Below, piece by piece: positions 31,897 through 33,384 of a stretch of 64,000 nt of DNA. The stretch lies in contig NW_005434560.1 of NCBI RefSeq assembly GCF_000315625.1, forward strand, positions 128,020-192,019, in the 5' to 3' direction. Made by a program: the position numbers and the translations under genes. How positions within the stretch are numbered: position 1 is the stretch's first letter; each line of letters begins with the position of its first letter. Below the pieces are notes generated by a model. That model ran no database searches and was not told the DNA's origin. It was given only the letters and a program-made list of their open reading frames with translations. Origin of the DNA: Guillardia theta CCMP2712. Taxonomy: Eukaryota; Protista; Cryptophyta.

Positions 31897-33384
31897 ATGG
31901 GACGCACCAAACAAGATCAACGGAGGGAGACCGGTCAAAGGGCTCCAGTCGCGAGGCTCTCAACTCAGAGAGCCAGAGAAGATGCACCCTTTACGGCGGG
32001 TGTAAGACAGCCAGGCAGCACTGCTACCAAGCAGCGCGGTGTTGTCGCATCGGGCGTGAATGTGCCCAATTATCTGCAGTTGATCTGTGCCCTTTCTGCT
32101 TTTCAAAGTGAGGAAGATCTAAAACAAATGCAGTACTTTGTCGACCTTTCTAAGGAAGATGAAGCTTGGTACAACAAGCTTACCTCAGAAAACAGGCAAA
32201 TATTTGATGATCTCTGGGTTAGGCTCGATTCCGTGTCTGTACCTCAGACAGAACAGCAAACGACTGAAGGTGCAGCTTCTATCTTGCAGAGCATGCGCAA
32301 TGACGAGAATCAAGACACGCAACAGGAGTTCCAGGAATCCGATCCAACCAATGTCGTGAGCGGCACCCTGCAACCGGACGTCACGGTGCTCCTCGAATCC
32401 CAACCCGAGAGCAATGAAATGGATTCGCAGCAAGAGCCTGTGCCGGCCCCTCCTGCCGTCGATGGAAATGGTGATCCAATCGATGAAACGGGCACTGGAT
32501 CGCAGGTTCCTGGGACGTCGCCGACCGATGAGCCGACATCCGTTTCCTCTACCATCGATGAGAACAATCAAGAAATCGATGGAACGGGTACTGAATCGCA
32601 GGTTCCTGGGACGTCGCCGACCGTTGAGCCGACATCCGTTCCTGTCGTCGATATGAACGAGAACAGAGATGAAGGCTCTTCCAACGCTACCGGTTCAAGC
32701 AAACTGCTAGAGAAGGCATTTCAGCGAGAGAGCAGCTCGGATGAATCCGATGATCCCGATGCACCTGTGATCACCAACTCTCGCAAGAACGTCGGTGGCA
32801 AGCAACTCCCACAGATGCAACCACAGATGTCGAACCCACAGCCGCAACCAGCAACGTTTGTGAACCCAGCTTTGGAAGAGTATCACTTCGTTATTCCCGA
32901 GCAACCCGACAATGGTCCGGAACAAACAGGCGTTCCATCTACTGCCACTGATTCGTCTGTTTCTAAAAAACCAATCAGAACCAAGCAGACTGCCAAGAAG
33001 AGCACTGGCGGCAAAGCACCACGCAAAGGTCGCGCCAAAAAGGATTCTAGGAGGTCCACCGTACACGACGGCGGAGTCAAAAAGCCCCACCGCTTCCGCC
33101 CCGGCACCGTGGCCCTCCGCGAGATCCGCAGGTACCAGAAGAGTACGGAGCTCCTTATCAGGAAGATCCCTTTCCAGCGGCTCGTCAGGGAGGTAACGCA
33201 AGACCTGGGATTCCGGGGCATCCGATATAAAGCAGATGCCATCATGGCGTTGCAGGAGGCTTCGGAGGCCTACCTGGTTGGACTCTTTGAAGACACCAAC
33301 CTCTGTGCCATCCATGCCAAGCGTGTCACGATCATGCCCAAGGACATCCAGCTGGCCCGGAGGATCCGTGGGGAGCGTACTTAG
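31897..33384 (+). CDS. H3: Histone H3 with a long extension and a second, N-terminal H3-like tail (495 aa)
   Basis: C-terminal [17 protein letters not shown]...[28 protein letters not shown]...[12 protein letters not shown]-terminal MGRTKQ... collinear with the H3 tail; TATTTAAA at 31853. Confidence 0.95.

Follow-up and report, generated by a model that had tools for sequence, protein, structure and literature searches.

The 64,000-nucleotide stretch of DNA analyzed here (the window) contains a gene for a histone H3 with an additional, altered H3-tail copy at the far end of a long acidic arm, and this architecture is both real and unusual. The open frame at 31897-33384 on the forward strand specifies a protein of 495 amino acids (P0001) as a single continuous ORF. 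Across 64 viral H3 loci, a second tail in the same ORF occurred in none, and no description of a two-tailed H3 was found in the titles and abstract openings returned by literature searches; supplementary mirusvirus gene tables and histone alignments could hold this protein. The gene and its parts are laid out as follows.

31850-31860, forward strand: TATA-like promoter motif, 45 nt ahead of the H3 gene's ATG
31897-33384, forward strand: two-tailed histone H3 gene (P0001), 495 aa, its sequence as far as 33200 being the same in one contig each from runs X1 and X3
31900-32013, forward strand: tail 1, a copy of H3 residues 1-38 with 7/8 lysines replaced and T6D, S10E, and S28D; homologue P0126
32059-32232, forward strand: predicted helical domain of no known family, residues ~55-112, based on identity to P0126 and a structure model of pLDDT 62
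32242-32766, forward strand: acidic arm rich in S, T, P, Q, and N, residues 116-290, net charge -32, likely disordered
32779-32805, forward strand: short H3-like word SRKNVGGKQ, not significant and within the range of shuffles
32974-33087, forward strand: tail 2, an internal H3 tail, residues 360-397, with no Met before it and with K27R
33088-33384, forward strand: H3 alphaN and histone fold, residues 398-495, with loop 1 divergent and one residue longer and K79 lost

Contigs from sequencing runs support the long form. Runs X1 and X3, which come from two studies (X3 being possibly the source of this sequence), each hold the gene to 33200 in a single contig with zero differences, and an assembly chimera is unlikely given that the same DNA appears in contigs from two studies. 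A freshwater metagenome, X6, contains a gap-free contig over 31903-32242 that takes in tail 1 plus the helical domain and differs at 11 of 340 nt, and pieces of the acidic arm, which itself includes a direct repeat of 92 nt (32453-32544 and 32549-32640), are present in runs X6 and X7. Splicing of tail 1 onto the fold seems doubtful: a donor-like GTAAGA lies at 32002, yet no pyrimidine-rich splice acceptor was found before tail 2. As for the start site, the motif GTAT[AT][AT]AA has 21 copies in the window, of which 18 lie 31-57 nt before an ATG opening an ORF of at least 100 aa, a count made without a shuffle control. One copy, at 31852, precedes the ATG at 31897 by 45 nt, and that ATG is the first after the motif. 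Together with the N-terminus of the homologue described below, this promoter motif supports the translation start at 31897 on which the original prediction depended. A deeper contig in X6 (record 16) matches 31388-31865 and then continues for 373 further letters, and may represent a strain with a diverged promoter or H3 start.

The N-terminus had been proposed to align without gaps to the H3 tail, and it does. Against the H3 tail of protein P0049, tail 1 (residues 2-39) is identical at 19 of 38 positions with a BLOSUM62 score of 98. No in-register shuffle out of 200,000 attained this score, and the highest value for any unrelated 38-mer in 60,253 six-frame windows was 37. HMMER searches of 1.84 billion proteins connected the same stretch to H3 tails at about 1e-6. 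All of the proposed substitutions (K9R, K14R, K18A, K23Q, K27E, K36R, K37Q, T6D, S10E, and S28D) were found in this strain, in which A1 is additionally replaced by G. The resulting M-G-R-T-K start of P0001 fits the iM-Z-R-X-K rule for histone mimics, a motif absent from the homologue, which has Q at position 4. A degenerate second histone fold was also sought after tail 1 and left no remnant (p 0.80 and 0.74), ruling out a tail 1 followed by a decayed H3 fold.

The pattern of changes in tail 1 is not that of random decay. Seven of the eight lysines are changed in this strain versus 12 of the 30 other residues (p 0.021), and three of the four acidic residues fall on S/T sites (p 0.004-0.015, post hoc). 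When four viral H3 tails were allowed to decay neutrally to 19 identities, in 20,000 simulated runs each and under a model that leaves out any general pull toward acidity, three or more S/T-to-D/E changes arose in 0/20,000 runs from each of the four starts, and near-total lysine loss arose in 3-6% of runs. Among 45 viral H3 tails (the alignable members of 56 unique viral H3s, the other 11 being too short or impossible to align), no acidic residue (D or E) replaces T6, S10, or S28; all 45 retain K4, whereas 32 retain K27 and 14 retain S28. Tails 1 and 2 use the same codon at only 2 of 12 shared residues, where simple neutral decay would predict about 75%, an expectation that is not strict, as the ancestor is unknown.

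Only one homologue of the N-terminus was recovered, a protein of 101 aa (P0126) on a 670-nt contig that shows just the N-terminal arm, so that any fusion to H3 in that virus lies beyond what the contig displays. P0126 is 61% identical and 77% similar to the N-terminus of P0001 over 88 aa with no indels, and its last residues do not align. The two proteins share 15 canonical H3 residues and seven derived ones (T6D, K9R, S10E, G13Q, K14R, G33A, and K37Q), with zero indels across the 38 tail residues in either homologue. P0126 differs from tail 1 in having A1, K4Q, K18L, K23E, and S28H and in keeping K27 and K36, and its lysine loss (6/8 vs 13/30 other residues) is not significant (p 0.12). Identity between the two is 22/38 in the tail and 31/49 over residues 40-88, and within the tail it reaches 17/22 in positions 1-16 plus 33-38 but 5/16 in positions 17-32 (p 0.008, with blocks picked post hoc). 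The recurrence of T6D, K9R, S10E, and K14R in a 61%-identical homologue thus joins the absence of three or more S/T-to-acid changes from neutral runs as evidence that tail 1 is not simply decaying. Conservation of the substitutions in relatives was the original prediction's own test, and the outcome was divided: those four are conserved, but P0126 has K4Q, K27, K36, and H28, and because of this the picture of a tail that keeps only K4 and is K27-proof is specific to one strain. As judged from these two sequences, the feature that the homologues share is a fixed K9/S10 switch, with K4, K27, and S28 outside the shared signal, and comparison with the one relative shows the conserved core of tail 1 to be the 6-16 segment with T6D, K9R, S10E, and K14R.

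Further searches for relatives returned little. A representative search gave 10 matches, comprising P0126, eight proteins with two canonical H3 copies, and one repeat protein, and the full-length search recovered only ordinary H3s within long, mostly mis-joined eukaryotic models. Residues 1-130 matched none of 182 candidates among proteins of 272-867 aa, scans of viral contigs and metagenome contigs with the N-terminus gave no match, and residues 1-135 had no usable match in the Atlas.

The region between the tails had been described as an acidic linker of ~320 aa. This holds for the acidic arm at residues 116-290 but not for residues ~55-112, which are predicted to be helical and are conserved in the homologue to residue 88. 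The fold modeled for this helical domain had no match in PDB or BFVD, and a full-length structure model (pLDDT 40) was unusable. The N-terminal extension ahead of H3 proper amounts to 359 aa and is lysine-poor across the arm (10 K in 320 aa), and the whole of P0001 has a net charge of -11, compared to +20 for an ordinary H3. A third H3 fragment claimed within the linker, SRKNVGGKQ, did not survive scrutiny; its score of 31 was reached by 406 of 5,000 linker shuffles (p 0.08) and is therefore not shown to exceed chance.

Tail 2 is 26/38 identical to the H3 tail and does carry K27R, but it departs from H3 at 10 of the 14 residues in positions 19-32, making it less canonical than claimed. It retains K4, K9, S10, K14, K18, K23, S28, K36, and K37. 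A short tail with a free A1 adjoining the fold is absent, tail 2 being internal, starting at residue 360 with no preceding Met. The histone fold is intact, as had been asserted, matching PF00125 at 1.4e-42 (145 bits against a Pfam cut-off of 26.4), with H3.1/H3.2 at 1e-63 as its best PDB matches and 83 of 97 positions (86%) identical to H3. It has 14 substitutions and one insertion, and 13 of these 15 changes, including K79G, are at H3 positions 74-89, clustering in loop 1 and the start of helix 2. The chaperone site reads DAIM. From the conservation of the fold only, we infer a putative assembly of P0001 with H4 into nucleosomes.

The sequence comes from a large DNA virus that is probably a mirusvirus of single-celled eukaryotes and likely belongs to the freshwater-prevalent order Styxvirales. 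The following features bear on this assignment.

About 27200-28810, forward strand: terminase large subunit in pieces, beginning near Walker B, with intron ends read by eye
27836-28234, reverse strand: 132-aa ORF antisense between two terminase pieces, with no Pfam match, which may be an intron-harbored gene
39773-41998, forward strand: Tcp11-domain protein (Pfam)
43691-44326: TATA-binding protein (TBP), E 2e-35
47688-48524, reverse strand: DcpS_C protein (scavenger decapping/HIT-like; Pfam)

The window is rich in ORFans, with only 4 of 61 scanned ORFs matching Pfam (H3, TBP, Tcp11, and DcpS_C). Positions 27244-27804 match terminase clusters (PF03237) at 0.97 by Atlas features, and the terminase pieces have zero sequence matches in Pfam, PHROG, or PDB. 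Because the gene starts near Walker B, the piece present here suggests a trans-spliced C-terminal half, and the layout fits the trans-spliced terminases and intron-harbored genes reported from nuclear mirusviruses (PMC12768974). Both TBP and H3 belong to the core genes of mirusviruses, 54% of whose genomes include a histone, which is highly expressed (PMC10132985). The split terminase, TBP, and H3 in the window agree with the initial guess of a mirusvirus. An HK97-fold major capsid protein, portal, or triplex was not identified among the scanned ORFs in searches run without mirusvirus profiles, an H4 gene was not among the 61 ORFs of a window that covers about one-fourth of the contig, and no relatives emerged from locus scans that used the terminase piece, TBP, and the gene downstream.

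Several known systems resemble parts of this arrangement. Like the core H3 of Mirusviricota (PMC10132985; PMC12768974), P0001 is accompanied in its genome by TBP and a split terminase, but the portions of those reports drawn on here do not mention a second tail or a long acidic arm. N-terminal extensions of single viral H3s have been reported at +53 aa in Dishui Lake phycodnavirus 1, +68 aa in MAG SRX310217.15, and +35 aa in Manila clam xenomavirus (PMC9145170). P0001 shares with these proteins a host-like fold (73-87% identity there, 86% here), an altered chaperone site, and a presumed host H4, whereas its extension, 359 aa against 35-68 aa, is strongly acidic and opens with a second full-length tail copy. 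P0001 is best regarded as a variant of these single viral H3s with two tails in one ORF, lending partial support to the idea of a genetically fixed modification state. The influenza NS1 tail, the ARKT motif of G9a, and human H3 N-terminal mimics (PMC8166343; PMC11738798) likewise present an H3-like peptide, with the free N-terminus iM-Z-R-X-K found in this strain, but as described in those sources they are short motifs in nonhistone proteins that act by being modified, whereas tail 1 spans 38 residues, sits on a histone, and is mostly unmodifiable. By analogy, the best functional precedent may be the bracovirus protein CvBV-H4, a viral histone with an extended N-terminal tail that enters host nucleosomes and acts via that tail, although it is an H4 and serves immune suppression in an insect host (PMC9145170). 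Two giant-virus loci, L024 and L027, also place a divergent H3 tail upstream of a full H3 with K27R, as follows.

L024, 2131-2385, and L027, 2130-2402: stand-alone H3-tail-like ORFs of 84-90 aa that contain short repeats rich in lysine and lie shortly ahead of a full K27R H3

Unlike tail 1, these are separate genes, lysine-rich and with insertions, and the likeness lies in the layout.

Our leading interpretation, tentative and just short of evenly balanced, is that P0001 is a viral H3 variant in which a tail duplicate, a helical domain, and an acidic arm have been added to a complete H3, yielding loose, hard-to-silence chromatin. The fold would pair with host H4 in the nucleus through host chaperones. 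Acidic chaperone tracts shield the DNA-binding surfaces of histones, and the arm may by analogy do the same to its own histone and weaken wrapping, while its bulk may hinder compaction. Tail 1, presumably an old duplicate of the H3 tail, would be the only free N-terminus of the protein and could serve as an unmodifiable docking peptide, its K9/S10 switch fixed in the "released" state and therefore closed to writers. The outcome would favor transcription of the viral genome, itself dependent on the machinery of the host. A more specific proposal is possible but on the doubtful side: the gene itself would specify the state of the K9/S10 switch (with T6 and K14), and an acidic self-chaperoning arm would bring this fixed state into chromatin as a counter-defense against host silencing. 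Phosphorylation of S10 displaces HP1 from K9me3 (PMC6795522). PHD fingers depend mainly on A1-R2-T3-K4 and a free N-terminus (PMC5291243; PMC8166343); T6 phosphorylation anti-correlates with their retention on K4me3, and they are less sensitive to phosphorylation of T6 than of T3 (PMC5291243).

The notion of a genetically encoded code that keeps viral chromatin active is thus supported in its nonrandom changes and in the sharing of T6D, K9R, S10E, and K14R, but not in K4, K27, and S28, which are unconserved, nor in the fate of activating sites. K14, K18, and K36 are sites of activating marks, and all three lysines have also been lost from tail 1. Calling the protein repression-proof was an overstatement for the same reason and because tail 2 keeps K9 and S10, so that P0001 as a whole is not K9-proof. 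A role as a decoy of host readers fares no better, as a tail lacking K9 would not be able to decoy K9-methyl readers.

One alternative, which we consider somewhat unlikely, is that tail 1 is a fading duplicate in a protein whose helical domain is under selection, as is its overall low lysine content or acidity, making the phospho-mimic appearance incidental. Such a relict would explain why positions 17-32 are so poorly conserved between the homologues, with K4, K27, K36, and S28 all varying, why the tail is no more conserved than the region that follows it, and why the loss of lysine, a modest enrichment by either statistic, extends over the whole arm. It is harder to reconcile with 38 residues free of indels in both homologues, with 15 canonical and seven derived residues in common, with the placement of acidic residues on S/T sites, post hoc as that test is, and with codon sharing between the tails far below the neutral expectation, loose as that expectation may be. 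At the other extreme, the complete fixed code first proposed, with K4 kept, K9 and K27 blocked, and three phospho-mimics acting to maintain active viral chromatin or to decoy readers, appears improbable. Every listed substitution is present in this strain, its N-terminus satisfies the mimic rule (PMC8166343), HP1 is displaced by S10 phosphorylation (PMC6795522), and tail 2 likewise has K27R. However, P0126 departs from the code at positions 4, 27, 28, and 36, tail 2 retains K9, activating sites are removed along with repressive ones, and changes at K27 and S28 are common in ordinary viral H3s.

A protease or splicing could instead separate a tail-plus-helix mimic from a near-normal H3. The separate tail-like ORFs upstream of K27R H3s in L024 and L027 are consistent with such a two-product arrangement, as are the calling of P0126 as a 101-aa protein with an unaligned end and the several peptidases that mirusviruses encode (PMC10132985). 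We nevertheless consider it very unlikely, as the ORF runs unbroken in contigs from two studies, no motif for cleavage was recognized, and the end of P0126 may reflect a short contig or an intron. Still more improbable is a centromeric H3 mimic that uses the arm and longer loop 1 to anchor a persistent episome of the virus to the host's segregation machinery. Centromeric H3s are recognized by a divergent fold with Q68, F84, and T107 replaced. P0001 keeps Q68 and T107, carries F84Y, with Y rather than W at that position, its fold is 86% identical to ordinary H3, and its best Pfam and PDB matches are ordinary H3s. What it does have in common with such proteins is the 359-aa extension, the extra residue in loop 1, and the concentration of changes at positions 74-89; long tails are found in centromeric H3s (PMC9145170), the sequence comes from a eukaryote assembly, and mirusviruses are described as able to persist in cultures.

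Viral H3 genes are common in mirusviruses. A natural protein in which one H3 tail can be modified and the other mostly cannot, and whose phospho-mimic changes recur in a second, diverged virus, offers a direct handle on how nuclear giant viruses deal with silencing by the host. If tail 1 is a relict, the gene still encodes an unusual histone architecture, of modest interest.

Two minor observations concern the gene end and a neighboring locus. Where the H3 gene ends (33374-33409), about three copies of a short motif appear to surround the stop codon, as judged by eye. Farther upstream, at 19308-25454 on the reverse strand, a 2,048-aa orphan protein contains five tandem heptads at about 20790-20885 (YSPPSPT four times and YSPSSPT), which we take to resemble the repeat consensus of the RNA polymerase II CTD and which are possibly a second mimic of host transcription signals.
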